A stretch of DNA of 64,000 bases from Caldilineaceae bacterium (GTDB taxonomy: Bacteria; Chloroflexota; Anaerolineae; Caldilineales; Caldilineaceae). Every line of letters begins with the position of its first letter. Within the stretch, counting starts at the first letter, position 1. Of the stretch, positions 6,898 through 64,000 are shown in pieces. A program made the translations under genes and the position numbers. Where the stretch lies: assembly GCA_965204525.1 (NCBI GenBank), contig OZ241994.1, positions 2,791,732 to 2,855,731 of the forward strand, given 5' to 3'. Under the pieces are notes generated by a model that saw nothing but the letters and a program-made list of their open reading frames with translations, was not told the origin of the DNA and did no database searches.

Positions 6898-7070
6898 ATC
6901 ACTGTTTCGCGATAGTCCCGTTGGAGCAACGCTAGCTGGAAGGGATACTTGACTCTAGCCGACAGGCTCAGAGAATCGGACGAACTGCGCTGAATTCTGA
7001 TGTGACTTTCAGGCAATTGTCTCATATTCGATTGCATTTGTGAACTTTGCGGCTTAAAGGGGGAAGATAC

Positions 7071-7412: not shown

Positions 7413-7526
7413 TGAAGCTGGACGACACCATGAACTGACTTTTCCACTGCCAATCCACGTGCTTGGTGAATTGCTCCAATTTACACTTTAGTTCGTGGCC
7501 CAAATACTGGGGCCAAGTTCTCGACC

Positions 7527-9698: not shown

Positions 9699-9769
9699 CT
9701 TCTTCTCCTCGTTTATTAAGAGCGAAACTGTCTCAATACTCTCCGGTCTGACTCTGCGATACAGTACGA

Positions 9770-12667: not shown

Positions 12668-12851
12668 ACTGTTCCGTTTCCCTTTCAACGGTTGACCGAC
12701 GCGTGGATGGGACTTTCGGTGCGGCTGAATTCCCGTCAATCTACCACTTTGCAGAGGACGGGCCAAAACCTGCTGAATCTGCGACCGCTTTGCCTGTGGC
12801 GCCGCGCTATGCTATCGTTGACCGCAAAAATTCATGCATTGAAAGGATGGG

Positions 12852-13925: not shown

Positions 13926-13962
13926 GTAGTCAGTTCTTAGCTTTTAGTGGGCGGCGACTGTC

Positions 13963-14172
13963 GTGAAGTATAAGGGATATACCGCTTGCAGTGACTATAG
14001 TGAAGACGACGGCTGCTTTGTCGGACATATTGCAGGCATCAGTGATATCGTGGGTTTTCACGGTGAGTCCGTTGCAGAACTGCGTGCCGCTTTTGAAGAG
14101 GCGGTCGATGATTACCTTGAAACCTGCAAGCAGCTGGATCGGACCCCTGAAAACCCTGTTCCGGGGTGGTGA
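13963..14172 (+). pseudogene. HicB-family antitoxin, N-terminal domain only (likely truncated relic)
   Basis: GTG start. MKYKGYTA..YSEDDGCFVGHIAGISDIVGFHGESVAELRAAFEEAVDDYLETC is a HicB N-domain. The ORF stops where a C-terminal RHH/HTH domain is expected, no hicA is nearby, and the MFS gene 3' end abuts it. Confidence 0.5.
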
Positions 14173-14198
14173 ACCGTTAGCAGACAACAGAGGCCGGA

Positions 14199-15542: not shown

Positions 15543-15547
15543 GTGGA

Positions 15548-44657: not shown

Positions 44658-45938
44658 CTAGCGATTGAATTTCACAGGTGAGTATCTGAACACGACTGGC
44701 AGTTCAGCGATGTCAATGGCGGCGGGGTCGGTGTAGTGTGAGATGTGGACATGGCCTGTGCCGCAGTCGCCGAATGAGTCACAGGAGATAGGGCCGGTGA
44801 TGCCGTTGAATCTTATGAGGTCGGTAAGAGCGAAGCGGAGCATGGCGCGGTCGATGTAAAGCATACCTTCTTTATTTTCCACAGCGATATATTCAATGGC
44901 GCGCAGAAGGAGAGTGGTGGCATCGTAGGCTTGGGCAAGGTACGCCAGGTTCGTCGTTTCGTTGAACTGCTGTTGATAGGCGTTGAGCAGCTCTTCTCCA
45001 CTCCTGCCAGTTATTTCGTTGGTATTGTCGTTGAACTCAAATTCCGGTCCTGCCAGGTAGGCGTCCACAGATTCCAGCTCGGTGAACAGTAGAGACTCTA
45101 TAGTGATCAGTGTTACATCTTCGAGTCCGTCAACCTTGTCGATCTGGCGTACTATGTGGCCTGCCTCATCGGGAAAGAGGGGAAAGAAGATACCTTCAAT
45201 GTTGTCTGTAGATATGCTGGTCAGGAGGGGCAGCATATCGACTTGGCCTTTGGAAACGACACCGGTGCTCACGACTGAACCACCCAGATCCGCAAAGGCA
45301 AAAGAGAAGGCGTCAGTAATGCCCACTGTATAGGGGTCGCCGTCGTTAATGGCTGCCATCCTGCGCAGGTCCAGTTCGTTGTATACGAAATCCGCAACCG
45401 CTCGTGCCTGGTGAATATCATTGCTGGCGACGCGGTAGTAGCCTGGATGATAGTTGTTGCCGGCTTTGCCATACAGATCGGATGTCAGAGAGGGCGCAGA
45501 ATTTGCGGAGGAAATCATTACCAGGCCGGCCTCGCTGATAATCGGGGAAGCGGCTACAGCTGACAGTGAACATGTCGTCCCGATTACACCCAGAACGCGT
45601 GGATCGTTTATCGCTGTCCTGGCTGCGTCCACGCCTCCTGCCTCCGTACAGAGCGAATCGATGCCTGCGCCCAGCGTGATCTCATGTCCTTTTATCGGGC
45701 CGTAATCGGCAATCGCCATCGCCGCTGCGCGCAGTCTCGGCACACCCAGCTCACCTACGCCGGTCAGGACTTCGAGAGAACGAATGTGAATATCGTCATC
45801 TGGCTCTACAATTACGTACCCCATTTCTGACGGACTGTACACAAAGCGATGCGGCGTGCAAGCGCCAGTCAAAATGAGCACAACCAAAACGGTCAAACAA
45901 CGCAGCAACATAGCCATCCTCTGTAACAGTGTGCGCAT
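44658..45938 (-). CDS. ABC substrate-binding lipoprotein, LivJ/LivK family (paralogue of 43367..44647)
   Basis: Lipobox ILTGAC and VLGVIGTTCSLSA. Start is ambiguous (ATG 45938, ATG 45917 or GTG 45950) because the 5' end lies inside a repeated leader element. Confidence 0.8.
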   Translation of the reverse strand: MRTLLQRMAMLLRCLTVLVVLILTGACTPHRFVYSPSEMGYVIVEPDDDIHIRSLEVLTGVGELGVPRLRAAAMAIADYGPIKGHEITLGAGIDSLCTEAGGVDAARTAINDPRVLGVIGTTCSLSAVAASPIISEAGLVMISSANSAPSLTSDLYGKAGNNYHPGYYRVASNDIHQARAVADFVYNELDLRRMAAINDGDPYTVGITDAFSFAFADLGGSVVSTGVVSKGQVDMLPLLTSISTDNIEGIFFPLFPDEAGHIVRQIDKVDGLEDVTLITIESLLFTELESVDAYLAGPEFEFNDNTNEITGRSGEELLNAYQQQFNETTNLAYLAQAYDATTLLLRAIEYIAVENKEGMLYIDRAMLRFALTDLIRFNGITGPISCDSFGDCGTGHVHISHYTDPAAIDIAELPVVFRYSPVKFNR

Positions 45939-46140
45939 CTCTTCGTCCACTTTATGTCCTCCCATGACGAAAAACCGGAGCAGTAGTCTCGCCGCCGGCA
46001 GCGCCCCGAACCGTACCACCCCGCCCCGCAAAAAACAAACAGGCCCCGCCGCATCCCGCGACGGAGCCTGTGCGCCCAACACCCACATCCTACTTTCGAT
46101 TTACCATCATTCTGCCCCGCCACCGGCTGGGCAGTTCGCT
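45914..46140 (-). repeat. Repeated 5'-leader element, copy 1 (hairpin + SD + first codons)
   Basis: Aligns with 50342..50561 at high identity by eye. Homology ends one nucleotide past an ATG (45917/50345). Confidence 0.8.
46030..46070 (-). terminator. Intrinsic-terminator-like hairpin with a U-run, downstream of hicB and inside the repeated leader
   Basis: Minus strand: CAGGCTCCGTCGC-GGGAT-GCGGCGGGGCCTG, a 13-bp stem with two G:U pairs, followed by TTTGTTTTTT. Confidence 0.55.
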
Positions 46141-46153: not shown

Positions 46154-46372
46154 TTAGCTTGTGGTCCAGGTCTTGGGGCCAAGCTCACCTTCCTGTCGGT
46201 TTTCGGATTCGATTTCCAACCACTCATCGACGATCTGACGCAATTGCAGGAATACCTGGTCTTTATCGTCCCCATGGCAGCAGGGACCTATGATTCCCGG
46301 GTAAGACCCTACATAACACTGGTCTTCCTCCGACCATTCGACGACCCCGCCATACTTTGTGTTTGCGGTCAT
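46154..46372 (-). CDS. hicB: HicB-family antitoxin
   Basis: 72 aa. MTANTKYGGVVEWSEEDQCYVGSYPGI... Start overlaps the hicA stop (ATGA). Confidence 0.75.
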   Translation of the reverse strand: MTANTKYGGVVEWSEEDQCYVGSYPGIIGPCCHGDDKDQVFLQLRQIVDEWLEIESENRQEGELGPKTWTTS

Positions 46373-46563
46373 CTTTCAGCCTCCTCAACAGCTCGTCTTA
46401 CTTCCCTTTCCTGGTACGGCCTTGCGTCATCGTTCGGCTTTCCAGAAACAGTAACTCGCCCTCCCTTTGGATGCCAGAAATTCCTGTGGCTGCCTTTTCC
46501 GCCTCTATCTGTAAATCCAGCCCTTTCCAGCTCTCTGATCAACTCTCGAATCTTGCGGGGCAT
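46369..46563 (-). CDS. hicA: HicA-family mRNA-interferase toxin
   Basis: 64 aa. MPRKIRELIRELERAGF..RGGKGSHRNFWHP is the HicA signature. Confidence 0.8.
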   Translation of the reverse strand: MPRKIRELIRELERAGFTDRGGKGSHRNFWHPKGGRVTVSGKPNDDARPYQEREVRRAVEEAER

Positions 46564-46746
46564 ATCTGTCCAGGAACAGGTTGCGGTTTAGAATCGATTG
46601 ACGAGACTCAATCCAGTAAGCCGATAGCTCCCCATCAGACTCAGCAACAAGAAAGAGCCTCATCACGATAAACAACATTGTCGTATATCGCTGTCCATAT
46701 TGCAATGTCGAAGAGACCGGCACGAATGGGCATTTGTATTGTGAAG

Positions 46747-47134
46747 TGGACCCCAATGTTTCGACCATACAATTGGGAAAACATGGAGCATTCGCGCAGA
46801 TTCGGCTGGCTCTGATCAGAGCGCGTAGTGTTGTTCAGCTTGGTGGGCGTGATCGTCGGGACTTTGACGCGCTCTCTCATAATTGTAGAAGATCCGGGCA
46901 CCTCTTACAGCAGACGCTGGTTTCAGGGCCGTATCAGGTTGGCATGAATCTCGTGCTCGCTGGACAGCTGGGCTAATCGTCTTACTCCATTCGAGCACTT
47001 CCAGTGCAACCCGGAACTTGAAGGCCGCCGTGTGCCGCCGCCGTCTCTTGACCATCGTGCTGCCCCTCCACAGGCTGGGTGACTTCCTCTTTGGATGCAC
47101 GTGAACTAGTGGTCCGGTCTTGGGGATCACTTCA
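46747..47134 (-). mobile_element. IS3-family relic: left inverted repeat plus degenerate orfA (HTH transposase) with stops and frameshifts
   Basis: MVKRRRRHTAAFKFRVALEVLEWSKTIS... resembles IS3 OrfA (xFKxxVALEALKGEKTIxEL). The terminal TGAAGTGATCCCCAAG...ACCAC..GTT resembles the IRR TGACCTGCCCCCGACG...ACCAC..GTT seen at 63702. Confidence 0.6.
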
Positions 47135-47791
47135 CTTGCCGCGCGGGAGATAGTCCTGGCCATAAGTCGAGAAATCGTGTGTCCAGAAGGCAATGGTGGA
47201 TTCGTCAGTAATGCCAGGAATCCGCGCCGCAAGTGTCAACGTTCCGTCTTCTTGGGAAAGCGACACTTTGACCTTGTCTGGCAAGAGATCGCACCTGGTG
47301 AATTCCGCGCCATTGTGTTCGGCGATAGAGCGATAGCATCTACTCAGGTCTATTTGAAACCAGGGTTTTGAGAGAATCACCCTGCCCAAAGTAACCCTTG
47401 TCAGCTCAGGATCGTAGTAGGTGGCATCTATCTGAAAGTCACGATAGTCCAGCGAAGTCTGAGCATCACCCTCGATATCGATCAGAACAGTCCACCGATA
47501 CTTTATGTCATCCCAATGTCCTATTTCCTGCCTGTTCGCCGCCTCTTCGGGAAGTTCGCGCAGGTGAAAGGTCGCGGCCAGCAGTTCGCCATCCAATGCG
47601 GAACTTACGCCGATCATGTCGACGGAGCCGGGCAAGTAGGCCGCAACTGACCCTTCCAGGCTCTGTCCTGGCGACAGGTCGGTATAACGCAACGGAAGAG
47701 TACCAATAGAATACCTCTGGTAGGGGGATGGTGGCAGAAACGGGCAACCGTTCAACAGGCAGACACATGCGGCAATCAACAATGTTTTCAT
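47132..47791 (-). CDS. Lipoprotein of unknown function
   Basis: MKTLLIAACVCLLNGC lipobox. 219 aa. The stop codon coincides with the first three bases of the IS relic end. Confidence 0.6.
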   Translation of the reverse strand: MKTLLIAACVCLLNGCPFLPPSPYQRYSIGTLPLRYTDLSPGQSLEGSVAAYLPGSVDMIGVSSALDGELLAATFHLRELPEEAANRQEIGHWDDIKYRWTVLIDIEGDAQTSLDYRDFQIDATYYDPELTRVTLGRVILSKPWFQIDLSRCYRSIAEHNGAEFTRCDLLPDKVKVSLSQEDGTLTLAARIPGITDESTIAFWTHDFSTYGQDYLPRGK

Positions 47792-47888: not shown

Positions 47889-47990
47889 TGACCTGCCCCC
47901 GACGTTTGTACCACCGGTTATGTTAGTCCGACAAGCACGGGGACAGGGCCGGCAGGAATGAGGGACTCGGGCGCCGGCAGGCCGACCCTT
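47889..47990 (-). mobile_element. Solo IS3-family right-end relic (IRR plus degenerate 3' tail of orfB)
   Basis: 47889..47947 is identical over 59 bp to 63702..63760. Similarity decays over the next ~40 bp. Confidence 0.7.
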
Positions 47991-48026
47991 TCCGAGCAGA
48001 TGCTTCTCGTCTATTGGGGGAGGACA

Positions 48027-48788
48027 ATGACGCAGGGTTCCCACATTTGGGTTTTGGTCGTAGCGGTTGCGGCGTCACTTGTCGCGGTTGCCGCCTGCTT
48101 CGGGCCGCAAACTTCAGACGACTACTACGACAGGGGCGTTGCCAGGTTGGAGGACTTCAAATACAAGGGCGCCGTTGCCGACTTTGATCAGGCCATCAGC
48201 ATTCGGCCCAAATACAGCGACGCCTACATCAAACGGGCCGATGCCAAGATCGGACTTGATCAATACGAGGAGGCCATCGCCGACCTGGATCAGGCCATCC
48301 AACTGCAGCCCGATGACGGCTACGCCTACTCCAGCCGGGGCCTTGCCAAGTCCATGCTTGGTCAATACAAGGACGCGATTGCCGACTTTGATCAGGCCAT
48401 CCGACTGCGGTACCGCTACGCCTTCGATTACTATTATCGGGGCGTTGCCAAGTTCAACCTTGACCAATACGATGAGGCGATCGCCGACTTCGATCAGGCA
48501 ATACAAATACGGCCCCGCGACGCCTCCTTCTACCTCAGCCGGGGCCTTGCCAAAGCTGAACATGGTCAGAACGATGAGGCGATCGCCGACTTCGATCAGG
48601 CAATACTACTGCGGCCCCGCGACGCCTACTACTACCTCAGCCGGGGCCACGCCGAGGTGGCCCTCGGCCAATACAAGGAGGCGGTCGTCGACTTGCAGAC
48701 CGCTCTGGAACTGGCGAGCGAGACAAACGACGGTGACTTAATCCCCTACCTTGAACAAGAGATTCGGGAACTTGAACAAGTGGAGTGA
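48027..48788 (+). CDS. TPR-repeat lipoprotein
   Basis: GGAGG before ATG 48027. Lipobox VAVAAC. About six 34-aa repeats (AIADFDQAI.L.P....AY..RG.AK...). Confidence 0.8.
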   Translation: MTQGSHIWVLVVAVAASLVAVAACFGPQTSDDYYDRGVARLEDFKYKGAVADFDQAISIRPKYSDAYIKRADAKIGLDQYEEAIADLDQAIQLQPDDGYAYSSRGLAKSMLGQYKDAIADFDQAIRLRYRYAFDYYYRGVAKFNLDQYDEAIADFDQAIQIRPRDASFYLSRGLAKAEHGQNDEAIADFDQAILLRPRDAYYYLSRGHAEVALGQYKEAVVDLQTALELASETNDGDLIPYLEQEIRELEQVE

Positions 48789-50201: not shown

Positions 50202-50345
50202 CTATCCTCCCGCCCCGACCCCGAAAGCCGTATAGGTGGCAATGACGGAAAAGACGAAACCGCCCGCCACCAATATGCCGCCGACCAAAAACGCCCAGAA
50301 CAGGAAGCCCACCTTCCATCGAATCGAATCCATGTGCGATTCCAT
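50202..50345 (-). CDS. Small membrane protein (47 aa) whose start codon is supplied by the repeated leader element
   Basis: MESHMDSIRWKVGFLFWAFLVGGILVAGGFVFSVIATYTAFGVGAGG. Upstream alternative starts (50366 ATG, or a GTG) lie within the repeat. Confidence 0.35.
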   Translation of the reverse strand: MESHMDSIRWKVGFLFWAFLVGGILVAGGFVFSVIATYTAFGVGAGG

Positions 50346-50561
50346 CCTCTGTAACAGTGTGCGCATTTCTTCGTCCACTATATGTCCTCCCATGACGAAT
50401 AACCGGAGCAGTTGTCTCGCCACCAGCATCGCCCCGAACCGTACCACCCCACCCCGCAATAATCAAACAGGCCCCGCCGTATCTCGCGACGGAGCCTGTG
50501 CGCCCAACACCGGCATCTTACTTTCGAACAGGGCGTTCATCCGCCGCGCAGCAAGTTCGCT
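50342..50561 (-). repeat. Repeated 5'-leader element, copy 2
   Basis: Homologous to 45914..46140, including the hairpin (50468..50498; stem conserved, loop substituted, weaker U-run). Confidence 0.8.
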
Positions 50562-50578
50562 TTGGCAAATTTTGTGGT

Positions 50579-50789
50579 TGGCCCCAATGACTGCACCACG
50601 AAATGGGAATAACATGGTGAATCCTTCCGGATTCGGCCGGCTTTGAACATGGCGCACAGTGTTGCTCAGCTTGGGGGGGACGAAGGTCGGGACTTTGACA
50701 CGGTCTCTAACGTTTTTGGGAGACCTGGGCCCGTCTTAAAGCAGATGACGTTTCCACCCCCGTATCAGGTTGGCATGACTCTTGTAATC
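50579..50789 (-). mobile_element. IS3-family orfA internal fragment (relic 2)
   Basis: Collinear with 46747..46958 (agtgttg.tcagcttgg...gtatcaggttggcatga). Lacks the orfA 5' part and the IR. Confidence 0.55.
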
Positions 50790-51110: not shown

Positions 51111-51320
51111 TTACATAAAATCTTCTCTGTTCAATCCAGACTGCTTGATGATGCTTCTTATTGTTCCGACAGGAATCTCTCTACTATTAGGCACAACCAC
51201 ACGAATTGGTTCATTGTCCACCCACTTTTCAAATACCATATGGCTTCCCTTGCCTCTAGGTGTTTCGACAAAACCCTTGTTTCTCCAAGATTCTACGAAT
51301 CCTCCGAGTCGGTTTAGGGG
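51111..51320 (-). pseudogene. HicA-like toxin frame without a usable start codon
   Basis: Open frame PLNRLGGFVESWRNKGFVETPRGKGSHMVFEKWVDNEPIRVVVPNSREIPVGTIRSIIKQSGLNREDFM with HicA motifs. It is bounded upstream by TAA (51321-51323) and has no ATG/GTG/TTG before the GSH motif. Confidence 0.5.
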
Positions 51321-51601
51321 TTAACCTGTTGGACATCTAACTGAACAAATCCTTCCTCGGCGAAAGTATGATACGATACTGTGGTTCTATGCTTTTCGGC
51401 TTCTTCCAGCTTGTCGAATCTGATCAAGCGTCTCCATATTTCTTCTTCTGATCCAACTTCTATCAACAACTCTATGGCTTCAATCAGGTTGTCAATAGCC
51501 TCTTCTCTTGTCTCACCCTGGCTTGCAACTTCTATTTCAGGGCATCGAGATACATGCCATTCACCTTCCTGCCATAACTCAACACTGAAGAGTCGTTTCA
51601 T
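51314..51601 (-). CDS. HicB-like (UPF0150) antitoxin
   Basis: MKRLFSVELWQEGEWHVSRCPEIEVASQGETREEAIDNLIEAIEL is the HicB/UPF0150 N-domain pattern. Confidence 0.7.
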   Translation of the reverse strand: MKRLFSVELWQEGEWHVSRCPEIEVASQGETREEAIDNLIEAIELLIEVGSEEEIWRRLIRFDKLEEAEKHRTTVSYHTFAEEGFVQLDVQQVNP

Positions 51602-51710: not shown

Positions 51711-52493
51711 ATGATATGCCTTCTTAAGGTCAAAGGCTGGACTATAGTGGCCGCTATAGCATTTGTAGCGTTAGCAGGTTGCAGACAGGAAAAGACCTTC
51801 GGTGAATATTACTTGCATGGCCCAACATGGTTGAATCAGGGCGAGAATGACAAAACGATTTCAGAACTTGACCGGATCATTCGGGAACAACCCGATAACA
51901 CGGCTGCCCATATGAAACGCGCCGAAATAAAGTCCAAATTAGGTCGGTACGAAGAAGCGCTCTCTGACCTCGATCTGGCCGTCCGTCTGCAACCGGACAA
52001 CCCCGCAATCTTCCAGCGCAGGGCAGATATTCACTTGGAAATCAGTCAATTCGATGCCGCCGTTTCCAATATCGATCACGTCGTCCGTCTGCGGCCTAAC
52101 GACCCATCCGCCTACATGACGCGCGCACTATACAGATTTCAGGCCGAACAGTACCGGGCGACAATTTCCGACCTCGATAAAGTCATCGCCATGCGTCCAG
52201 ACCACCCCTCGGCTTATTATCTTCGCGGTCTGGCCTGGGCCAACTTATATCAGCCTTGGCTTGCCCTTGCCGACTATGATAAACACATTCAGATACATCC
52301 AGATAATGCCCACGCTTATGGAAGCCGGGGTGTTGCAAAGGAGCGTCTTGGCCAGCGCAAGGAGGCTCTTGTTGACTACGAAATATGTTTGCAAATGCTA
52401 GGCGACAGCCCAAGTCATAACGGGATGCGAATTGCCGTCGAAAAGAGGGTTCGGGAACTTGAAAACAGCAGAAAGGAAGAACGCAATGAGTAA
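51711..52493 (+). CDS. TPR-repeat lipoprotein (paralogue of 48027..48788)
   Basis: Lipobox ALAGC. Repeated 34-aa TPR units (A.SDLD.A.RL.PDN....RA...). Confidence 0.8.
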   Translation: MICLLKVKGWTIVAAIAFVALAGCRQEKTFGEYYLHGPTWLNQGENDKTISELDRIIREQPDNTAAHMKRAEIKSKLGRYEEALSDLDLAVRLQPDNPAIFQRRADIHLEISQFDAAVSNIDHVVRLRPNDPSAYMTRALYRFQAEQYRATISDLDKVIAMRPDHPSAYYLRGLAWANLYQPWLALADYDKHIQIHPDNAHAYGSRGVAKERLGQRKEALVDYEICLQMLGDSPSHNGMRIAVEKRVRELENSRKEERNE

Positions 52494-52824: not shown

Positions 52825-52946
52825 GACCCCGCCACGACACGCAGGTTGACCGCGTCCTGATTAGCAACGAAGTCATTTACTTTGGCGGGGGCGGCCTATG
52901 TATTCCTGTAGTTGGCCCCAATCTCCAGACCGCGAAATGGGAAAAA

Positions 52947-53834
52947 ATGGATAGGGAAACGGTTATTCGCAAGTTTGAGAATGTGAAATTATGGAATAGA
53001 GGCGGAGTGCGAGCACCCCATAAGCCTTTACTGGTGCTATATGCGATTGGCAAGCTGTTGCAAGGTGAGGAGCGGCTACTTCCCTATGCTGAAGTGGACA
53101 AAGAACTCGGGGATTTACTGCGGGAATTCGGTCCGAAACGGCAGAACTACCAAACGCAACAACCATTTTGGCGGCTCCAGAACGACGGGGTTTGGGAAAT
53201 TCCCGAGGCGTACTTGGTGAGTCAGACATCTAGCGGCGATGCCCGAAAAAGCGACCTGGATGTGTACGAGATTTCCGGGGGATTTCCAGAAGATATCGCT
53301 CGTCTATTGCAAGACGATCCCGAATTGGCGCTAATGATCGCCCAGGGGATGCTGGACACTCATTTTCCGTCCTCGATCCACGAAGACATTTTACAGGCTG
53401 TCGACATAGAATTGCCCTCCGCAGTGCCTGGCAACGGCAGGCGCTACTCGAACTTCCTGGCGAATGTCTTGAAGGCATATGAGTACAAGTGCGCCGTGTG
53501 CGGCTTCGATGTACGGTTGCGCCATCAGCCTGTTGCGCTGGAAGCTGCCCATATCAAGTGGCAACAGGCCGGTGGGCCGGACGTGGAAACGAACGGCCTG
53601 GCGCTGTGCGTACTTCACCAGAGGCTTTTCGACCGAGGGGCTTTTTCTTTGTCCGAGCAGTTGCAAATCATGGTATCAGATGAAGCCAACGGTTCGGCTG
53701 GCTTCCAGGAGTGGTTGATGCGCTTCCACGGTCAGCATCTCAAATTCCCGCAGAGACAGTCCTATTACCCTGACGAGAAGTACGTTTCCTGGCATGTAAA
53801 GGAGGTTTTCCAAGGAGACTATCGCGATCTGTGA
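52947..53834 (+). CDS. Phosphorothioated-DNA-binding-type HNH restriction endonuclease (SBD-HNH, ScoMcrA/SprMcrA-like)
   Basis: The N-terminal APHKPLLVLYAIGKLLQG...FGP......QQPFWRLQNDGVWE resembles the sulfur-binding domain. C-terminal HNH: CAVCGFD...LEAAHIKW...NGLALCVLHQRLFDRGAF. Confidence 0.65.
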   Translation: MDRETVIRKFENVKLWNRGGVRAPHKPLLVLYAIGKLLQGEERLLPYAEVDKELGDLLREFGPKRQNYQTQQPFWRLQNDGVWEIPEAYLVSQTSSGDARKSDLDVYEISGGFPEDIARLLQDDPELALMIAQGMLDTHFPSSIHEDILQAVDIELPSAVPGNGRRYSNFLANVLKAYEYKCAVCGFDVRLRHQPVALEAAHIKWQQAGGPDVETNGLALCVLHQRLFDRGAFSLSEQLQIMVSDEANGSAGFQEWLMRFHGQHLKFPQRQSYYPDEKYVSWHVKEVFQGDYRDL

Positions 53835-54038
53835 TCTGAGCGGGCCTTAATGCAGCCTTCCAATCAGGCTCCGTTCGCGCCGGTGTCACAGCGCGCTTTA
53901 GATTGAAGTCGGTAATCTGTGCCGAAAGGCGAAAGTGGCTCTCTTCATTCCTTACGTTGCCCAGGCACCTATCCCCACTGTTCCGTCCTAGCCTAAGGAA
54001 CAACCGAAAAGCCATATCGCATAATAGGTCCCTTTCGA

Positions 54039-54066
54039 TTGACATTGAGAGTGGGACATCTATAAT
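54039..54066 (+). promoter_or_regulatory. Consensus sigma-70 promoter for the four-gene cassette
   Basis: TTGACA (54039-54044), 16-nt spacer, TATAAT (54061-54066). GGAG lies 8 nt before the GTG start at 54112. Confidence 0.5.
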
Positions 54067-54111
54067 ATGCTCCAATCCCAATGGCATGACAAAGAGATAG
54101 GAGAAGCATAA

Positions 54112-54912
54112 GTGATCAGTTTGGAACAGGCGTTCAGCGACACTGAAAGAGCCGCGGAGTCGGCGCTCAAGGCGGCAAGAGGACTGACCACGCAGGCCAG
54201 GGCGCTCGAAAAGGCGGCCAAGACAGGAAACATTACGGCGATAAAGAGAGAACAGAAGAGGCTTACCGAGGCCCTTAACGTTCTGCAGCAGGAAGTACAC
54301 AACGCGGCATCATCCTGGTCTTTTTCGGACGAGGAGGTGGTGCGGTACCTCGACGAACGCTATACAGATGAGCTCCGGGGCGCGGCTTTAGACGTCGGTC
54401 TCAAGGTGTACGAACGTGATGGAAACGTGTTTTCCTATCCTTCGGTATTGCGCGTCCTCCCGCGTGAGAACGCAGTCAGAGTTGACAGGAAGAAGAATTC
54501 TGCCATTCGACCGACTCATTTGGCGGAAATGCTTCTCAAGAATCAGACAAAGAGCAGCGGCTATTCGTCAAATCGGTTCCTTGAGGCACTCTATTTTGTT
54601 TACTCAGGCATTTTGAGCAGAGAGGATTCCGGCCGTCTCATGAAAAGCACCGGGATCGTTGTACCTTTGATAAAGATATACGGGCTCATGACTGCCTTGC
54701 CCGGCGCTAACCGCGAGTATGACCGCAGCGACTTCGCGAGGGACATATACATGCTTGATTCCCAGGGACCCCGTCGGACGCGCAGGGGTGCTACAGTTTC
54801 CTTCCCTTCGTCAACTGGGACACGCCGAAAATCCAGCGACTTGTTTACGTTCGTAGGGCCAGAAGGCGAAAGCGTTGAGTACTACGGTCTAAGGTTCAGC
54901 GAGGACGTCTGA
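54112..54912 (+). CDS. Cassette gene A: N-terminal coiled-coil protein of unknown family (266 aa)
   Basis: GTG start with RBS. The first ~60 residues are helical heptad-like (ALKAARGLTTQARALEKAAKTGNITAIKREQKRLTEALNVLQQEV). The remainder is unassigned. Confidence 0.7.
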   Translation: MISLEQAFSDTERAAESALKAARGLTTQARALEKAAKTGNITAIKREQKRLTEALNVLQQEVHNAASSWSFSDEEVVRYLDERYTDELRGAALDVGLKVYERDGNVFSYPSVLRVLPRENAVRVDRKKNSAIRPTHLAEMLLKNQTKSSGYSSNRFLEALYFVYSGILSREDSGRLMKSTGIVVPLIKIYGLMTALPGANREYDRSDFARDIYMLDSQGPRRTRRGATVSFPSSTGTRRKSSDLFTFVGPEGESVEYYGLRFSEDV

Positions 54913-55859
54913 TGTCGAACACCATCCCGATTCAGGAATGGCTGGGCTTCATTGACAGCGAATATCTGTCAACGTTCGTAAGGGACGGCGGGGCATCGGT
55001 CAAATTCGCGGTCACGCCCGAGGAGAGGAAGCCTGAACTCTATAGCGCTCTTAAAGCGCGGTGCGAAGAGCTGGATTACGTTTTCGTGGAGTTGGACGCG
55101 GTCACCAGTCGCGTTCATATGCCCCAGGACCTCTTCTTTGCGCTGGCCAAACAGATAGACTGGCAACTTCTGGCCCAGCGGATGGTGCGACGACTGGCGG
55201 AAGAGAAGGGTTTCCGCGTTGACGGCGTAGCAGTTGTGGACGCTAACGACAATATCTACAGTTCCCTGGCGCGTGCCAACGGAAGTGAAGCGACACTCGT
55301 ACTCCAGGAGATCAGACCGGAAATAGTCAGCCGAGTCATGAGAAATCAGAAGATGGCGAGAGACTTCAAGGTTGCGATGTATCACTTTTGCACGAGCCTG
55401 GACGGCGGAGAGTCCAGGCAACCGCTGTTGGAGTGGCTTACAGGCGTTAACACGCGAATCAGCAACGTTCGCCCTTTTTCCATCCGCACCAGCATAAACC
55501 GCACCACGGCGCGACACTATATCGAGTCGGCGCTATACTGGGTGCGGCACGCGGGTCATGCCGGGACGGCACTCTTGATAGAAAACTCACGCGTGACCCT
55601 GGCAAGAAGACCCAAAGACGGATCGCGGTATTACACGCGGGCAATGACCATTGATCACTATGAGTTGCTACGTGAGTTCATTGACGACGTGGACAGGCTG
55701 GCAGCGACGTTGATGGTCGTCGTGACCAACAATGACTTCATCGACGAACAGTCGGCAAGAGGCTGGAGAATTTACTCGGCGCTGCAGACCAGGATCATGG
55801 ACGACGTTCGCGACAGAAACCTCGTCAATCCGGTTGCAGCCTTAGTCCGGTTGTTGTAA
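54912..55859 (+). CDS. Cassette gene B: degenerate (Walker-A-less) paralogue of the downstream P-loop ATPase (315 aa)
   Basis: ATG overlaps the stop of gene A (TGATG). GGASVKFAV replaces the P-loop, LLIENSRV replaces Walker B, and LMVVVTNNDF parallels the sensor strand of gene C. Confidence 0.7.
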   Translation: MSNTIPIQEWLGFIDSEYLSTFVRDGGASVKFAVTPEERKPELYSALKARCEELDYVFVELDAVTSRVHMPQDLFFALAKQIDWQLLAQRMVRRLAEEKGFRVDGVAVVDANDNIYSSLARANGSEATLVLQEIRPEIVSRVMRNQKMARDFKVAMYHFCTSLDGGESRQPLLEWLTGVNTRISNVRPFSIRTSINRTTARHYIESALYWVRHAGHAGTALLIENSRVTLARRPKDGSRYYTRAMTIDHYELLREFIDDVDRLAATLMVVVTNNDFIDEQSARGWRIYSALQTRIMDDVRDRNLVNPVAALVRLL

Positions 55860-55870
55860 GGAGGCCTGGC

Positions 55871-57154
55871 ATGTCGATAGGCGATGGCACCAGTTCAACG
55901 GTGGCTAACCGGCTGGCGCTGGAAGCTCTGCGGAGCGGTGTTCCCAATCGGGCCGCTGTGCGGCTATTGGGTTGCAATCAGCCGCACGTAGAAGAGCGCT
56001 TCACAGCCATGCTGGACGGCGCCACGGAAGGCGATAGTCCGGCCCGCAATGGCCAGGGGATGCTGATCTCGGGCGACTTCGGATCGGGCAAGTCACACCT
56101 GCTGGCGCACCTGGAGCACCTTGCGCTTGAACAGGGATTTGTCTGCAGCAAGGTGGCGATCAGCAAAGAGACACCCCTCTATGATCTCGGAAAGGTGTTT
56201 ATCTCGGCCATGGAAAGCGGGCGTTTACCCGACCGCAGCGGCCGGCTGATTGAAGAGTTAGGTCTATCTCTGAAGCCCGACTCAAGAGAATTCGCATCGT
56301 TCTTCAGATGGGCGGACCAGGCCGCGACACAGGGCGAAATCAGTCCTATTTTTCCGGCCAGCCTGCTTATCTATGAGAGATCAGGGGATCTCGAACTCAA
56401 CGGCGAAATCGAGACATTCTGGGCAGGGGACAGGATTCTCAAGGGCAGAATAACAGCTGGGCTGCGCCAGATCGATCAGCTGCAAAACTACAAGTTCAAC
56501 ATGCCTAAGGTAGCTGAGCTGCCGCCACAGCGTCTGCGATTCGCCTTAGAGTTGATCAAGGGCGCTCGGTACAGGGGGTGGGTCGTATTGCTGGATGAGA
56601 TCGAGCTGGTCGGTTCCTACTCGCTTCTTCAGAGGGGACGGTCATATGCCGAGGTGGCCCGTTGGATGGGGGAGGCGGCCGGGGAGACCTATCCGGGCCT
56701 GGTCATGGTCGGCTCGGTGACCGAGGATTTCGCTTCGGCAATCATCAGTCCTGACGGATCGAGGAAGGATCACGACTACATCAGGCCGAAGATGGAGGCT
56801 AATCAGAGATACAACGGTATCGCCGGCCGCGCCGAGACCGGTATGCATATGTTGGAACGGCAGTGCGTGCCTCTCAGAGCACCGGAAAGCGACGACGTGA
56901 CCGCTACCGTAGAGAAGCTTCGAAGCTTGTATAGCGACGCGTACGGTTGGGAGGCGCCCCCGATCGACGCGAAAGCAGGCGGAGCCGGAATATACGGACG
57001 GATGCGGTACCAGGTCCGGCGCGCCATCAACGAGTGGGACCTGTTGCGGCTCAGGCCGGACTCCAGACCTGAGACAGAGGTCCAGGAGTTTACGACTTCG
57101 TATGAGGAGAACAGAGACCTGGAGTCGCCGGCCCAGGAAGGCGATGCTGAATAG
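55871..57154 (+). CDS. Cassette gene C: BrxD/DUF2791-like P-loop ATPase (427 aa)
   Basis: AAGGAGG RBS. N-terminal LEALRSGVPN, Walker A GDFGSGKSHLL, Walker B VVLLDEIE. This layout is as recalled for DUF2791 (BREX BrxD-type) proteins. Confidence 0.75.
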   Translation: MSIGDGTSSTVANRLALEALRSGVPNRAAVRLLGCNQPHVEERFTAMLDGATEGDSPARNGQGMLISGDFGSGKSHLLAHLEHLALEQGFVCSKVAISKETPLYDLGKVFISAMESGRLPDRSGRLIEELGLSLKPDSREFASFFRWADQAATQGEISPIFPASLLIYERSGDLELNGEIETFWAGDRILKGRITAGLRQIDQLQNYKFNMPKVAELPPQRLRFALELIKGARYRGWVVLLDEIELVGSYSLLQRGRSYAEVARWMGEAAGETYPGLVMVGSVTEDFASAIISPDGSRKDHDYIRPKMEANQRYNGIAGRAETGMHMLERQCVPLRAPESDDVTATVEKLRSLYSDAYGWEAPPIDAKAGGAGIYGRMRYQVRRAINEWDLLRLRPDSRPETEVQEFTTSYEENRDLESPAQEGDAE

Positions 57155-57162
57155 GGCCGGCG

Positions 57163-59214
57163 ATGCCTATCTCCTTCGACGATCTGGCCGAACCCGACGG
57201 CGGCGACACGGTAGCCTGGCTGCGATTTGTTGCCGAAGAAGAAGGTCACGGAGTTCGGGCCGCTCTGTTTGAAACCTCCAGCCTGGGCGAACCGTTGCGT
57301 TTTTCCTTTGCTCGCGCTGACAGTAGCCCCCAGCCATCATTCCATACAGACAGCGTGAAGCGGCGTGAGGCCGCGGTGCTTTCGCTCACCCGATCGCTTT
57401 TGAGGTCGGCAGCGGGCTCGCCGACACTGCTTCTCGGCCTGGCAGACGAGATTCCCCTTTGGGTTGTTACCGAGGCCCTACGGGTGAGGCTGCCCTTCTG
57501 TCTCATCGATCTAAGAAGTAAGGGCGCCCCACAGTTCTTGTGGGCGACAGACCAACCCCAGGAAGGCACGCAAGCCCACAGTGCTCTTGACAGGATCATG
57601 CTGAGAGACGACCCCTTCGAGGCGTTCGCGCGTGCCGCGAATTGCCTGAGCAAGGCGTTCGAGTACAGACGCATTCGCGGCTTTACCACTTTCGCCGGGT
57701 TAAGTGCCGTTGTGAACCTTTGCCGACCTGAGGTCGAGAACGGAAGCGACTCCGGTCCAGCGGAGAACCTCTGGGAGTTGTTGGAAGTACAGCCCATTAG
57801 TAAACGGCACGATAAGAGGCCTCATCCCTCATCCTGGGTCTCACAGATGGAATGGCCAGGGGAGCTGATGCCGTTTCAGATCAGCGGCGTGCAGGCGTTG
57901 CTGGAGATGAACCGGCTGCTCCTGGCAGACGACATGGGGCTTGGCAAGACTGTACAGACAGTTGCGGCGGTGCGGATTCTGCGGGCGCGCGGAGAGATAG
58001 AATCGTGTCTTGTCATCGCGCCGGCCAGTGTTTTGAACCAGTGGCGCGGTGAGCTTTCAAGGTGGGCTCCTGAGCTCAGCGCAATCATTGTTCGCGGGTC
58101 GGCGCCCGACCGCAAGTGGCAGTGGCTGGCCCAGACGGACGTCAAGCTGGTCAGCTATGGCGTACTGCGCCAAGACGCTGACAGTCTCGTTGCAACGCAC
58201 CCTTCCCGGCGTATGTGGGATGTCGTCGTGGCTGACGAAGCACAGCGGATCAAGAATCATAACGACACGAGCGACGCGGTCAAGAGGTTGCGGAGGGTAC
58301 GTTCATGGGCTTTGACCGGCACGCCTATCGAGAACAGGGAAGAGGAGCTGGCTTCGATCATGGAGTTTGTCGATCATGACGGGACGAGCCCGCTCAAGCG
58401 CTATTTTCCGGGTCTGGAATTAATGACCCGCCACAAGGAAGTCCAACTGCGGCGCAAAAAGAATGAAGTACTGAATGACCTGCCGCCGAAACTGGAGACC
58501 AAACTTGCTATTGAGTTGGGCCCCAGACAGAGGGCGAGCTATACGAAGGCAGAAGAGGAAGGTGTTTTCTATCTAAAGTCCCTGGGCGCTGAAGTCAGGG
58601 TACAGCATGTGCTCGAACTGATCACGCGGTTGAAGCAGATCTGCAATTTCGACCCCGTGACCGGCGAATCCAGCAAGCTCGACGACATTAGAGAACGACT
58701 GGTGCAGTTAACCGGGCAAGGACATAAGGCGCTTGTCTTCTCCCAGTACGCGAGTGAGACGTTCGGGGTGAAGGCAGCGGCTGCGTTCCTGCGAGCGTTC
58801 AGCCCAGTCATGTTGACGGGCGATATGCCGTTGGATGAGCGGTCGGTTGCGATCGAGCGGTTCAGGCACCGTGACGAGCACAAGGCGATGGTCATCTCTC
58901 TGCGGGCGGGGGGGCTAGGTCTGAATCTGCAGGAGGCGTCGTACGTGTTCCATCTTGATCGCTGGTGGAACCCGGCCGTTGAGAGGCAGGCGGAAGATCG
59001 CGCCCACCGGATGGGGCAAACCGTTAAGGTCAACGTGATCAAGTACTCGTGCGCGGGCACTATCGAGGAGCGCATTGACCGGATTCTGGAGCGTAAACAG
59101 AGGTTGTTTGATCAGCTGATTGATGACGTGTCACTCAACCTTTCGGCGAGGTTGAGCGGAGAGGAGCTTTTCTCGTTGTTTGGGCTTGATGCGCCTAGTG
59201 TCGATGGCGCTTAA
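57163..59214 (+). CDS. Cassette gene D: SNF2-family helicase with an unassigned ~230-aa N-terminal domain (683 aa)
   Basis: Motif I DDMGLGKTVQ, motif II DEAQRIKN, motif III LTGTPIEN, Helicase_C LVFSQY...GGLGLNLQEASYVFHLDRWWNPAVERQAEDRAHRMGQ. Confidence 0.85.
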   Translation: MPISFDDLAEPDGGDTVAWLRFVAEEEGHGVRAALFETSSLGEPLRFSFARADSSPQPSFHTDSVKRREAAVLSLTRSLLRSAAGSPTLLLGLADEIPLWVVTEALRVRLPFCLIDLRSKGAPQFLWATDQPQEGTQAHSALDRIMLRDDPFEAFARAANCLSKAFEYRRIRGFTTFAGLSAVVNLCRPEVENGSDSGPAENLWELLEVQPISKRHDKRPHPSSWVSQMEWPGELMPFQISGVQALLEMNRLLLADDMGLGKTVQTVAAVRILRARGEIESCLVIAPASVLNQWRGELSRWAPELSAIIVRGSAPDRKWQWLAQTDVKLVSYGVLRQDADSLVATHPSRRMWDVVVADEAQRIKNHNDTSDAVKRLRRVRSWALTGTPIENREEELASIMEFVDHDGTSPLKRYFPGLELMTRHKEVQLRRKKNEVLNDLPPKLETKLAIELGPRQRASYTKAEEEGVFYLKSLGAEVRVQHVLELITRLKQICNFDPVTGESSKLDDIRERLVQLTGQGHKALVFSQYASETFGVKAAAAFLRAFSPVMLTGDMPLDERSVAIERFRHRDEHKAMVISLRAGGLGLNLQEASYVFHLDRWWNPAVERQAEDRAHRMGQTVKVNVIKYSCAGTIEERIDRILERKQRLFDQLIDDVSLNLSARLSGEELFSLFGLDAPSVDGA

Positions 59215-59344
59215 CTCTGTTCCCGTCGCTATCGTAAGAAGCTGCGAGACTTTGACCTTTTCCGCTTATGGCTGGCCCCAATGTCTAGACCGTGAAGTGG
59301 AAACAATTAAGTGCAGCTAGACGAATATGTGGCAAGCAGGCTGG

Positions 59345-60085
59345 CTAATTGACTCTTGCCAGGTAATTCCCCAGTTTTCTCAAGGAAGCATTGCGTCCAA
59401 GTGTTTGCTGATTCATGACGAGATGATCAGCGATTTCCGGCGCCATAGCCTCGCGATACCGTTCCCTCTTGATATTCTTTTGCCGCATGTTAGGATTCAG
59501 ACCGAGCAGAATCTGTTCCGAAAAGTCGGTCAAGTATTCTTTAGAGCCTCTGCCGCCCGCTACCGCTTCGACGATGTTTTCGGTGTCACCCGGCTGTTTA
59601 TTCCTGATCAGACGTGACAGAGAAGAGTGAGAAGAGAGCTTTTGGCGGCAGTTTTCTCTGTAGCGGCTACGTTTGCCGGCGAAGCAACAGGATATTCCGA
59701 GACAGTCGATCAGAAGCCAAGATTCGAGTTCATGCACGGCCGGGGCGAAATACACTTTTCCATCAAGACTGCTATCATTGACGATCCGCATGATCTGATT
59801 GAACAACGAATTCGGCTGTCGGCGCCGTTCGTTCTTTGACATCGGGCCATCGCTGTCGATAACGAATATCACGCAGTCGTCTTTTTTGAGGTAGTTTTGT
59901 ACCGCCTTTCTGAGCATTTCATGCGGAGGAGGGCCTCTCTTTTTCGGTTTAGGGAGCGCCCCCTTACCGGATACTTGGATCGAAAGCTCGTCAAGTTGAA
60001 GATGAATCGCCAGCTTCTCTGCCAGGCTTCTGACCGCCTTGGCATCATTGTCAGATTCCAAGGTCCAGATTCTCACGCTTGCCAT
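59345..60085 (-). CDS. Toprim-like protein of the DUF4276 type (246 aa)
   Basis: IWTLESDNDAKAV (Toprim Glu), VIFVIDSDGP (DxD), AVHELESWLL. Start overlaps the ATPase gene end by 13 nt. Confidence 0.55.
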   Translation of the reverse strand: MASVRIWTLESDNDAKAVRSLAEKLAIHLQLDELSIQVSGKGALPKPKKRGPPPHEMLRKAVQNYLKKDDCVIFVIDSDGPMSKNERRRQPNSLFNQIMRIVNDSSLDGKVYFAPAVHELESWLLIDCLGISCCFAGKRSRYRENCRQKLSSHSSLSRLIRNKQPGDTENIVEAVAGGRGSKEYLTDFSEQILLGLNPNMRQKNIKRERYREAMAPEIADHLVMNQQTLGRNASLRKLGNYLARVN

Positions 60086-61263
60086 GCCGGCTCCGCCACT
60101 TGATCTTGAAGAAGCCCGCTATCGAAGATTCCGCTACCAATACCGAAATCAGCAATCCAACCATCCAGAGCCTGCCGGTCGCGACGCACATCTTCAAGGT
60201 TTATGACTTCAGTACCTTGTCCTGGACGATTGCGCAAGAGCAATATGCAGAGCGAATCGGACGGGTTCTCGGGACTGAATGCGTCCAACAGTTGGGAACT
60301 GTGGGTAGTGATGATTACTTGAGACTGTTCGGCGATTAACTCAAGCACTTCAGCAATGTCGTGCAGGGCGCCTGGATGCAAGTTTCTTTCCGGTTCTTCG
60401 ATGGCGATCAGCGGCGGCAGTTCCGGTTGGTTCAACAAAGTATAGTAGGCGACGAGACGCAGCGTACCGTCGGATGCGCCTTGCAATGGAATTGGGTTCT
60501 TGTACCCTTCTGAAAGACATAATTGGGGTTCTCCGTCTATTATGCCGTGGTCGATACTGATGTTGGTACTTTTCTTAAGAGATCGACTGATCGTCTCAAA
60601 ACGCTCTTTGTCAGTTTCAAACCAGTACGAGAGCAGTTCCGTCAGGGTTGAACCATCATCGTCAAGCTGAGGCGAATCGCGCGTCTCCATGGGTTCACCA
60701 AGGATGAGCTGATCTATGCTCGTGACTCTTCCTCGCATGACTCTTGGCTGAAAGTCATAGAACTCCCAATCTCTGACAAACTCTGTCAGGAGACTTGTAA
60801 TGGGTTTCTCCCCATAATCGCCAGCGGACTTCAGGGCGAGCTTTTTGGACTTATAGGTGGTTTTGTTCCGGCCGTCTTCGTCCTTTACATAACCCTGCCC
60901 GTCCTGAACAGATATAACGTCAATGTTCTTAACTAAGAGTCTTTCGTAGGCAAGGCGATTCTCCGAATCTGCGCTGAGATCAAGCGCATATTCGGCAGGA
61001 ATCTCCTTCACTTCGGCCTGCAATTGAAAAGTGATGTATTTAGCTTCACCGGCCCACAGCAGCCGTTGGATCAGGTCCACCGGAGGAAGCGCCTCGGCCC
61101 GGATCATCCTGTTGAGCAGCCTCAAGGCGCTTAAGACATTGGACTTTCCACTTGCATTGGGCCCTACCAGGACCGTCAGAGGCTTAAGCGGCAGCACAAC
61201 ATCGCGCAAGCTGAGAAAGTTCCTTATGTGAACTTCCTTCAGGAATAGGTTTGTATCAAACAT
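60073..61263 (-). CDS. ABC-type (AAA_15/AAA_21, OLD/Gabija/PARIS-like) ATPase (396 aa)
   Basis: Walker A GPNASGKSN, signature-like ASDGTLR, Walker B LIAIEEPERNLHP, H-loop ITTHS. Confidence 0.8.
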   Translation of the reverse strand: MFDTNLFLKEVHIRNFLSLRDVVLPLKPLTVLVGPNASGKSNVLSALRLLNRMIRAEALPPVDLIQRLLWAGEAKYITFQLQAEVKEIPAEYALDLSADSENRLAYERLLVKNIDVISVQDGQGYVKDEDGRNKTTYKSKKLALKSAGDYGEKPITSLLTEFVRDWEFYDFQPRVMRGRVTSIDQLILGEPMETRDSPQLDDDGSTLTELLSYWFETDKERFETISRSLKKSTNISIDHGIIDGEPQLCLSEGYKNPIPLQGASDGTLRLVAYYTLLNQPELPPLIAIEEPERNLHPGALHDIAEVLELIAEQSQVIITTHSSQLLDAFSPENPSDSLCILLLRNRPGQGTEVINLEDVRRDRQALDGWIADFGIGSGIFDSGLLQDQVAEPAWQA

Positions 61264-63701: not shown

Positions 63702-64000
63702 TGACCTGCCCCCGACGTTTGTACCACCGGTTATGTTAGTCCGACAAGCACGGGGACAGGTTCGGCAGGCAAGAGGGGGCCTCAGATACCGGCGGCCGGT
63801 AGCCCAGAGAGCTGTGCGGTCTGACCCGGTTGTAAGTCCGCCTGTACCGCTCCGTCAGCACACGCACTTCCAGCAACGTATAGATGACCTCCCTGTCCAG
63901 CAGTTTGGGCCTTCTGCAATGCGACGGCAACACACCTACAGCGACGCCATCGCCCCACCAGCCACTGACCACTGCCGTTACGGCAGCTCGACAAAGTGGA
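63702..64000 (-). mobile_element. IS3-family element, right end (IRR + 3' end of the orfB integrase-core gene), continuing beyond the window
   Basis: The terminus begins TGACCTGCCCCCGACG. The translated tail ...VIYTLLEVRVLTERYRRTYNRVRPHSSLGYRPP is the conserved C-terminus of IS3 rve-type transposases. Upstream frames look disrupted. Confidence 0.7.

Follow-up and report, generated by a model that had tools for sequence, protein, structure and literature searches.

A four-gene cassette with paired BrxD-like ATPases and a SNF2 motor in Caldilineaceae and other bacteria: a candidate accessory defence module

Gene layout and predicted products

A 64-kb stretch of DNA from a Caldilineaceae bacterium (contig OZ241994.1, positions 2,791,732 to 2,855,731; this whole stretch is called the window below) was analysed for a cassette of four adjacent genes, named A to D, all on the forward strand. 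Gene A (54112-54912, 266 amino acids (aa)) has a GTG start codon and is the first gene in every cassette. It is followed by gene B (54912-55859, 315 aa) for a degenerate BrxD-like AAA+ paralogue, gene C (55871-57154, 427 aa) for a BrxD-like AAA+ ATPase with intact Walker A and Walker B motifs, and gene D (57163-59214, 683 aa). The product of D has two modules, an N-terminal domain resembling endonuclease V (EndoV) and PIWI domains and a SNF2 ATPase. Genes A and B overlap by one nucleotide (nt) (TGATG), and spacers of 11 nt and 8 nt separate B from C and C from D. A preliminary description of this DNA had given the same open reading frames (ORFs), strand, overlap and spacers, all of which were exactly reproduced, as were the single consensus promoter and the motifs that it quoted (GDFGSGKS at residue 68 and VVLLDE at residue 238 of C, DEAQ at residue 358 of D).

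The sigma-70-type promoter at 54039-54066 on the forward strand (TTGACA and TATAAT, spaced by 16 nt) is identified by consensus match only, at 12 of 12 positions. It is the sole perfect match within 53700-59500, where seven promoter-like sites were observed and 2.2 were expected. A putative Shine-Dalgarno sequence, GGAG (54100-54103, forward strand), was read from the sequence 8 nt 5′ of the GTG codon of A. Scanning for terminators across A to D gave nothing convincing between the four genes. From the gene layout and the promoter, A to D is predicted to be one co-transcribed operon.

Protein C matches the Pfam family PF10923 (BrxC_BrxD, formerly DUF2791) with 61.1 bits (1.2e-16; gathering cut-off 22.2), as expected from its earlier description as an ATPase of the BrxD/DUF2791 type. 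Across 78 sequences, its Walker A (GDFGSGKS, with K74) and Walker B (VVLLDE) are both conserved, and the protein ends in an acidic C-terminal tail. Protein B also belongs to the PF10923 superfamily (1.9e-11, 44.0 bits against the same cut-off), with a match that covers profile positions 147-331 only. PF10923 is likewise annotated on the B and C homologues of several numbered loci (L001, L002, L005, L088 and L090). Among the models of PADLOC v2, BrxD is matched by C with 1e-13 and by B with 2e-9; matches to the SngB model are weak (C, 4.3e-5 and 20.8 bits; B, 1e-3 and 16.2 bits) and lie below the BrxD matches for both proteins. The scores with the NCBIfam BrxD equivalog NF033438 are 51 bits for C and 32.6 bits for B, far from its cut-off of 350.

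The P-loop position of B reads DGGASVKFAVTPxE across 79 homologues, and its Walker B motif has the consensus LLDN in the family (79 sequences) and reads LLIEN in the window protein. By profile-profile alignment with hhalign, this Walker B stretch of B aligns to the Walker B region of C. The loss of both motifs and the alignment argue that B is a degenerate, non-catalytic paralogue of C, which agrees with its earlier description as an inactive P-loop paralogue, and B is predicted to be a non-catalytic AAA+ partner of C of the ORC/Cdc6 type.

On a Nitrospinota contig (L086) the two proteins are fused into one of 811 aa, in which B corresponds to residues 3-316 and C to residues 338-756. Because B and C are joined in one polypeptide in some lineages, they are predicted very probably to form an asymmetric hetero-oligomer, and the fusion is Rosetta-stone evidence for B and C as a putative working pair. 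The same contig holds two such fusion genes within 8 kb (5171-7606, 811 aa; 12863-14734, >865 aa) and a single A gene, has no SNF2 gene, and carries a histidine kinase/response regulator pair directly 3′ of the first fusion.

In the AlphaFold2 model of protein A (pLDDT 87, pTM 0.75), residues 4-66 form an acidic helical hairpin, which is followed by two short helices and then by a basic α/β region (residues 96-266, pI 9.8). A Foldseek search with this model against PDB and BFVD returned no significant structural neighbour, and A and 110 members of its family gave no match to Pfam, NCBIfam, PADLOC or TerB models. A and B had both been described as matching no family that could be named; this holds for A, and B is placed by PF10923. 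Comparison of A, B and C with PDB sequences gave nothing useful. Family A contains 458 clusters at the 90% identity level and 810 at the 50% level; nearly all of its members are standalone proteins, about 260 aa long, that carry the annotation hypothetical. Conserved in the family are structural residues plus R133, R210 and D211 only. From its model and the family alignment, A is predicted to be an adaptor or DNA binder of novel fold and without enzymatic activity.

Two other identities of A were considered and rejected. A weak Foldseek match to MutH (E 0.7) and the residues E101/D103...D125-x-K127 had prompted a reading as PD-(D/E)XK nuclease, which was dropped because E101, D103, D125 and K127 are not kept in divergent members. 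A cryptic TerB or SngA protein was the other candidate: the preliminary description had named a TerB-type SngA identity of A or B as a finding that would assign the operon to a known system. TerB-type Pfam domains (TerB, TerB-N, TerB-C) are absent from A and its 110 relatives at E≤0.05, the PADLOC SngA model is not matched, and the profile matches in PDB are generic helical bundles.

The C-terminal part of D (57859-59211, forward strand, residues 233-683) matches SNF2-rel_dom PF00176 (2.6e-43, 148.6 bits) and Helicase_C PF00271 (2.1e-19). Both domains of a SNF2 ATPase are present, and the motifs I (GLGKT, residue 259), II (DEAQ, 358), III (TGTP, 385) and VI (QAEDRAHRMGQ, 609; pattern QxxxRxxRxGQ) are intact, in keeping with the earlier view of D as a bona fide SNF2 protein. 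The nearest solved structure to this core is Sulfolobus SSO1653 (1Z63, 2.6e-62), followed by ISWI/SMARCA5. SNF2 proteins are translocases on double-stranded DNA (dsDNA) and not strand-separating helicases. D is a genuine SNF2 ATPase, predicted to be of the dsDNA-translocase type. The protein ends at the SNF2 core, with no nuclease domain after the helicase.

The N-terminal domain of D (57163-57666, forward strand, residues 1-168), which had been left unassigned, has an RNase H-like fold. Its AlphaFold2 model was built with standalone-domain homologues as alignment and has a core (residues 16-165, pLDDT ~90) of the topology β-β-β-α-β-α-β-β-α-α, which contains the β-β-β-α-β-α-β core of the EndoV/PIWI RNase H-like fold. 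Foldseek retrieved EndoV from four species (4xpu, E=3.9e-4; 3ga2, 3goc, 6ozp), many Argonaute PIWI domains (1yvu, 5vm9) including those of the SPARDA/SPARTA short prokaryotic Argonautes (pAgos), the RNase H-like domain of Prp8 and the MutS connector. Probabilities reached 1.0, and TM-scores were ~0.3, partly owing to disordered tails of the query. As modelled, the domain is of the EndoV/PIWI type.

EndoV and PIWI enzymes carry the first catalytic Asp of their DED[D/H] set in strand β1. In the N-terminal domain of D, acidic residues are missing from this strand (residues 16-24) in all 52+18 homologues, and the conserved acidic positions are E43, E96 and E153 only. The homologue searches returned matches of query length, and searching with this domain alone gave fragments and missed full-length D orthologues, so that negative results for a sub-domain do not mean absence. 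We infer from the model and the alignments that the domain is a predicted catalytically inactive, nucleic-acid-binding module. The extreme N-terminus of D (MPIPFxD) is conserved and modelled with low confidence, which suggests that it may be a docking peptide.

Gene order, distribution and natural variants

A scan of species-representative genomes (one genome per species, 185,579 representatives) recovered the cassette at 233 loci, all of them in metagenome-assembled genomes (MAGs) from at least seven phyla or classes. The host lineages are Caldilineaceae, Dehalococcoidia, Alpha- and Gammaproteobacteria, Acidobacteriota, Binatia, Thermodesulfobacteriota and Gemmatimonadota; Nitrospinota are found among the more distant members of family A. 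The window proteins share 91-97% identity with those of L006, a Caldilineaceae locus. Bin names (SB06xx, APA, RHO, Aplysina-type 'bin36') and UUID-style isolate names look like those of sponge-holobiont projects, which we take them to be, and many of the host MAGs are apparently sponge symbionts.

The order A-B-C-D is kept in 66 of the 79 informative loci and in many phyla. Co-occurrence in other genomes, on which the preliminary description had made its proposal depend, was thus found. Because the same order recurs in so many loci, the arrangement lies far beyond chance. Median gaps among the loci are -1 nt between A and B, 7 nt between B and C and 34 nt between C and D. Another 11 loci (~14%), mostly from Vicinamibacterales, have A-B-C without D, and two are degraded. 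In two divergent clades (L088-L091) the N-terminal domain of D is a separate gene of 180-194 aa between C and a SNF2 gene of ~600 aa. Since D is absent or split in some loci, the conserved core is A-B-C, and the N-terminal domain together with the SNF2 motor is a frequent, separable output module. A substitute helicase was sought in the loci without D and none was found; the large upstream ORFs there are unrelated (penicillin amidase, radical SAM, ankyrin).

Twelve of 73 cassettes have their nearest relative in another class or phylum, with up to 81-84% identity over A+B+C. Broken copies were also found. The locus L057 contains two identical DDE_Tnp_1_4 transposase genes (12517-13842 and 14896-16221) inside the cassette, one of which splits C at residue 201 and the other lies between C and D, a clear case of pseudogenisation, and L034 is a remnant that retains A plus the 3′ two-thirds of D only.

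Relation to named systems and possible function

With PADLOC v2 and NCBIfam r20 no named-system model accommodates A to D, and only generic matches to BrxD, SngB and SNF2 models were obtained; among the PADLOC v2 models, a check with PADLOC having been suggested, none gives a complete named system. The searchable literature contains no description of a dead/live BrxD-like pair with a SNF2 protein and an A-like protein, nor did we find in it a description of an EndoV/PIWI-like domain fused to or beside a SNF2 motor.

BrxD is an AAA+ protein of the ORC/Cdc6 clade and is a proposed loader or activator of the helicase BrxHI (PMC12839542). ATPases of its family are so far known only from defence, where they are paired with a helicase in BREX types 2 and 6 and in Shango (PMC12839542, PMC12278908). 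Like the BrxD + BrxHI pair of BREX type 2/6, the cassette has a standalone PF10923 ATPase gene beside a superfamily 2 (SF2) motor. It differs from BREX type 2/6 in lacking BrxC, PglX, PglZ, PglW, BrxA, BrxB and a methylation module, in having the duplicated live/dead ATPase and the extra protein A, and in its motor, which is SNF2 and not Ski2/Lhr-like as BrxHI is. D scores 97 bits with the PADLOC BrxHI model against 255 bits with ZorD, and does not qualify as a BrxHI-type partner. PglZ, PglX, BrxP, BrxC/PglY and PglW are absent from the operon, its neighbours, the large ORFs of the 64-kb window and six independent homologous contexts. Because PglZ, PglX and BrxC are missing from the window and the inspected contexts, membership in BREX fails. 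The earlier statement that PglZ, PglX, BrxC and TerB are lacking holds for the window, and no active nuclease or methylase is recognisable in the operon, again as described.

Shango resembles the cassette as a small operon in which an accessory non-enzymatic protein, a DUF2791/BrxD ATPase and an SF2 helicase occur together with no obvious nuclease. Unlike SngA, A has no TerB, TerB-N or TerB-C domain and its fold is unmatched. SngC groups with BrxHI, DruE and DpdJ in an SF2 clade distinct from SNF2 (PMC12278908), whereas D is a SNF2 protein; of the 43 PADLOC matches of D, the best 25 do not include SngC. In addition, the cassette is a four-gene unit in which one gene encodes a pseudo-ATPase and D carries an EndoV/PIWI-like domain. 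Because A is not a TerB protein and SngC belongs to another SF2 clade, membership in Shango also fails. The analogy to BREX and Shango drawn in the preliminary description can therefore be kept for the ATPase and has to be given up for the helicase, since SngC and BrxHI stand in a different SF2 clade (PMC12278908).

Zorya (ZorD), DISARM (DrmD), Hma and ietH depend on SNF2 ATPase activity for defence. The best PADLOC scores of the D core are with ZorD (255 bits) and DpdE of the Dpd system (216 bits). With the NCBIfam models D remains far below the cut-offs (ZorD, 136 vs 1500; DrmD, 72 vs 950; DpdE, 62 vs 500), and none of the partners ZorABC, DrmA/DrmB, the Dpd cluster or HmaB is present beside D, so that membership in Zorya type I, DISARM, Dpd or Hma fails as well. 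ZorD and HmaA have active nuclease domains, unlike D, and work with ZorABC or with a methylase and an ATPase. With ZorD, DrmD, DpdE, HmaA and ietH only the generic SNF2 core aligns; they have no BrxD-like pair, no A and no EndoV/PIWI-like N-terminal domain.

This domain of D shares its fold class with the short pAgos (SPARTA/SPARDA), Prp8, the MutS connector and EndoV. Like the short pAgos it lacks the canonical acidic residue in β1, which suggests a role as nucleic-acid-binding sensor. It differs from them in lacking a MID domain and an APAZ partner, and their sequences show no similarity to it. The combination of a live ATPase with a degenerate paralogue, linked to a DNA motor, recalls ORC, the δ/δ′ subunits of clamp loaders and DnaC-type loaders. 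This is an analogy only: the sequence likeness ends at the AAA+ fold, and the motor D is a dsDNA translocase and not a ring helicase or clamp. The cassette is unnamed. Its parts are of known kinds, a BrxD-type AAA+ protein plus an SF2 motor, and its architecture is distinctive.

With middling confidence we regard A to D as a self-contained, horizontally mobile accessory module, most likely directed against phages or other mobile elements. The module is read as accessory and mobile because it has relatives across phyla, copies broken by insertion sequences (IS), no shared neighbour, a position in a low-GC, IS-scarred island and a variable flank. From the proposal of an undescribed defence system it stands that the cassette is unnamed, real and conserved; that it serves defence is plausible and not established. 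In a possible mechanism, A (possibly a dimer through its hairpin) and the B-C pair would assemble on DNA as a sensor or loader gated by ATP. Parallels are ORC/Cdc6, clamp loaders that contain dead subunits and the part proposed for BrxD in relation to BrxHI. Recognition of an invader-associated DNA feature by A/B-C would recruit or activate D. The inactive EndoV/PIWI-like domain of D would then hold a nick, flap, lesion or duplex end, and its SNF2 motor would translocate along dsDNA and strip or stall the replication or transcription machinery of the invader. Alternatively, the motor might make invader DNA accessible to nucleases whose genes lie outside the operon, for example the adjacent phosphorothioate (PT)-dependent HNH nuclease (PT-HNH) in Caldilineaceae. 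A more specific version, namely nuclease-free, remodeller-based immunity with a dead EndoV/PIWI-like sensor that has repeatedly passed between distantly related symbionts living in the same animal hosts, is offered tentatively and must be called doubtful.

Several observations weigh against a role in defence. No effector (nuclease, toxin, NADase or membrane protein) is recognisable in the operon, and D is dispensable in ~14% of the loci. With 50-65% identity between phyla, A to D show a degree of conservation that is unusual for immune genes, and sequenced plasmids and phages gave no match to A or C. From models and alignments, A is predicted to be non-catalytic and the N-terminal domain of D to be inactive; for the latter, a non-canonical site at E43/E96/E153 is possible. 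Many neighbours are housekeeping genes, and the defence-island signal is moderate: a survey of 142 de-duplicated immediate neighbours, in which counts are given without a genomic baseline, found ~12-16 defence-like genes plus three transposases. In four Dehalococcoidia species polA lies directly upstream, the cassettes of L002-L004, L022 and L023 follow polA on the same strand, and other cassettes are beside a nif cluster or near purA, glyA, gltA (citrate synthase) and pyk (pyruvate kinase). A neighbour conserved across phyla, as a possible missing effector, was sought and none was found. The earlier argument of guilt by association fits the window, where the cassette lies in an island with PT-HNH and IS scars, and is of moderate force overall, as PT-HNH is confined to one clade, about 10% of the neighbours are defence-like and housekeeping contexts occur.

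These housekeeping contexts, to which a locus adjoined by xseB, comEA and comEC can be added, would also fit a role in genome maintenance, in which A, B, C and the SNF2 protein act on host DNA at stalled forks, replication-transcription conflicts or lesions as an accessory repair function shared within a habitat. The high sequence conservation, the missing effector and the historical link of the EndoV-like fold to lesion recognition point in the same direction, and housekeeping functions are established for bacterial SNF2 proteins, RapA among them. The very patchy distribution (233 of 185,579 species representatives) with transfers across phyla, the IS-inactivated and remnant copies, and the location of the window cassette and of several other loci in variable, defence-rich islands speak against it. 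PF10923-family ATPases, moreover, have no known housekeeping member (PMC12839542, PMC12278908). Maintenance of the host genome is the main alternative, and we consider it unlikely, if worth keeping in view.

The signs of horizontal transfer and the IS-end remnants that flank the block in the window could likewise belong to a selfish element, for which the cassette would serve as a replication-initiation or helicase-loading module or as an addiction or anti-defence cassette. ORC/Cdc6-like AAA+ proteins are classically initiators and helicase loaders; SNF2 enzymes, to our knowledge, are not replicative helicases. Since no integrase, relaxase, replication origin or backbone gene recurs beside the cassette, which was matched on no sequenced plasmid or phage and keeps clade-wise stable chromosomal positions, such a role appears improbable. 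A subtype of a named system, be it a Shango variant or a BrxD + BrxH pair detached from BREX type 2/6, is very improbable, and this membership is largely refuted. The BrxD and weaker SngB matches of B and C, and the logic of an extra protein, a DUF2791 ATPase and an SF2 helicase that is common to Shango, would favour it. Against this stand the BrxD equivalog scores of 51 and 33 bits against 350, the missing TerB or SngA match, a SNF2 motor outside the SngC/BrxHI clade, the absence of PglZ, PglX, BrxC and PglW from the inspected contexts, and the dead/live ATPase pair and EndoV/PIWI-like domain, which have no counterpart in Shango or BREX.

If the cassette does serve in defence, it would add a new architecture to the small group of BrxD-family AAA+ systems (the BREX type 2/6 pair and Shango), whose mechanisms are not understood. 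It would in addition connect an inactive EndoV/PIWI-like module to a SNF2 remodeller for the first time, and would be a candidate case of interference that relies on a remodeller and needs no nuclease. If it is a repair module, it would represent a new accessory DNA-maintenance pathway in uncultured lineages. The natural variants (B-C fusion, split D, loci with A-B-C only, the dead/live pair) bear on the control of SF2 motors by ATPases, and the cassette marks the exchange of genes among symbionts of unrelated phyla. Family A, with its 810 clusters at 50% identity, merits a name and a Pfam entry either way. PF10923 has been counted as a Pgl/BREX gene in sponge metagenomes and was absent from seawater (Horn et al. 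2016; PMC5099237). Cassettes of the A-D kind, each with two PF10923 genes but without a BREX core, possibly inflate such counts and may account for part of this sponge-specific 'Pgl/BREX' signal (PMC5099237).

Surroundings of the cassette in the window

The window cassette lies in an island of 52-58% GC within a backbone of ~62-65% GC. Upstream of it, a gene on the forward strand (52947-53834) encodes a PT-dependent SBD-HNH restriction endonuclease of the ScoMcrA-like type (NF045808, 344 bits vs a cut-off of 180). This PT-HNH gene adjoins the cassette only in L001 and L006-L017, which form one Caldilineaceae clade. A second, diverged or fragmentary PT-HNH copy with 54-72% identity to the window protein was found a few kb 3′ of the cassette in relatives (L006:17329-18210, L014:17685-18567, L009:16691-17038, L013:19540-19827, L017:16363-16827).

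Convergent with D, a two-gene pair on the reverse strand (59345-61263) encodes an AAA_21 ABC-type ATPase and a DUF4276-like protein. The ATPase gene matches the PADLOC model HEC-01A with 155 bits and the NCBIfam model MADS3 with 87 bits (cut-off 420), and the DUF4276-like gene matches HEC-01B with 24 bits and its Pfam family with 23 bits (cut-off 30). By these scores the pair is a candidate HEC-01-type defence pair. It is common to L007 and L008 only, and the 3′ flank varies among close Caldilineaceae relatives.

Four copies of a 40-nt direct repeat, all in the same (forward) orientation, are present at 46742-46781, 50573-50612, 52907-52946 and 59267-59306. The core of the repeat is GGCCCCAAT-N6-ACC-NN-GAANTGG, for which three exact-pattern matches were found and none expected. 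The copy at 52907-52946 stands directly before the start codon of PT-HNH and that at 59267-59306 begins 53 nt after the stop codon of D, so that the two copies bracket PT-HNH and A to D. The repeat is also found just after D in L007:7072-7098 and L008:15160-15186. Similarity between the copies at 46742 and 50573 continues over ~217 nt, and an IS3-like OrfA fragment (46816-47232, reverse strand) directly adjoins one of these two. The 40-nt repeats are probably IS-end remnants or remnants like those of miniature inverted-repeat transposable elements, and they possibly mark the boundary of the cassette.

Other dispersed direct repeats were observed at 45914-46099 and 50342-50527 (186 nt, 92% identity) and at 47889-47964 and 63702-63777 (76 nt, 95% identity), the last of which adjoins an IS3-type integrase-core fragment (63736-63972, reverse strand). 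Judged by sequence, a HicA-like toxin (64 aa) and a HicB-like antitoxin (72 aa) are encoded as a pair at 46154-46563 (reverse strand), and a further HicB/UPF0150-like ORF, again judged by sequence, lies at 51314-51601 (reverse strand); these are typical island cargo. Two secreted-looking tetratricopeptide-repeat (TPR) proteins are encoded on the forward strand at 47958-48788 and 51711-52493, and the gene of the former has four tandem units of 102 nt (repeat family D1). Sponge symbionts commonly encode eukaryotic-like repeat proteins such as TPR proteins.

A second low-GC patch (46-56% vs ~65%) extends over 6000-12800 of the window. It contains an ORF of 998 aa for an Eco57I-type (type IIG-like) methylase/restriction protein (9770-12766, reverse strand) and a gene for a DUF4238 protein (7527-8495, reverse strand), and is probably another defence islet, unrelated to the A-D cassette.

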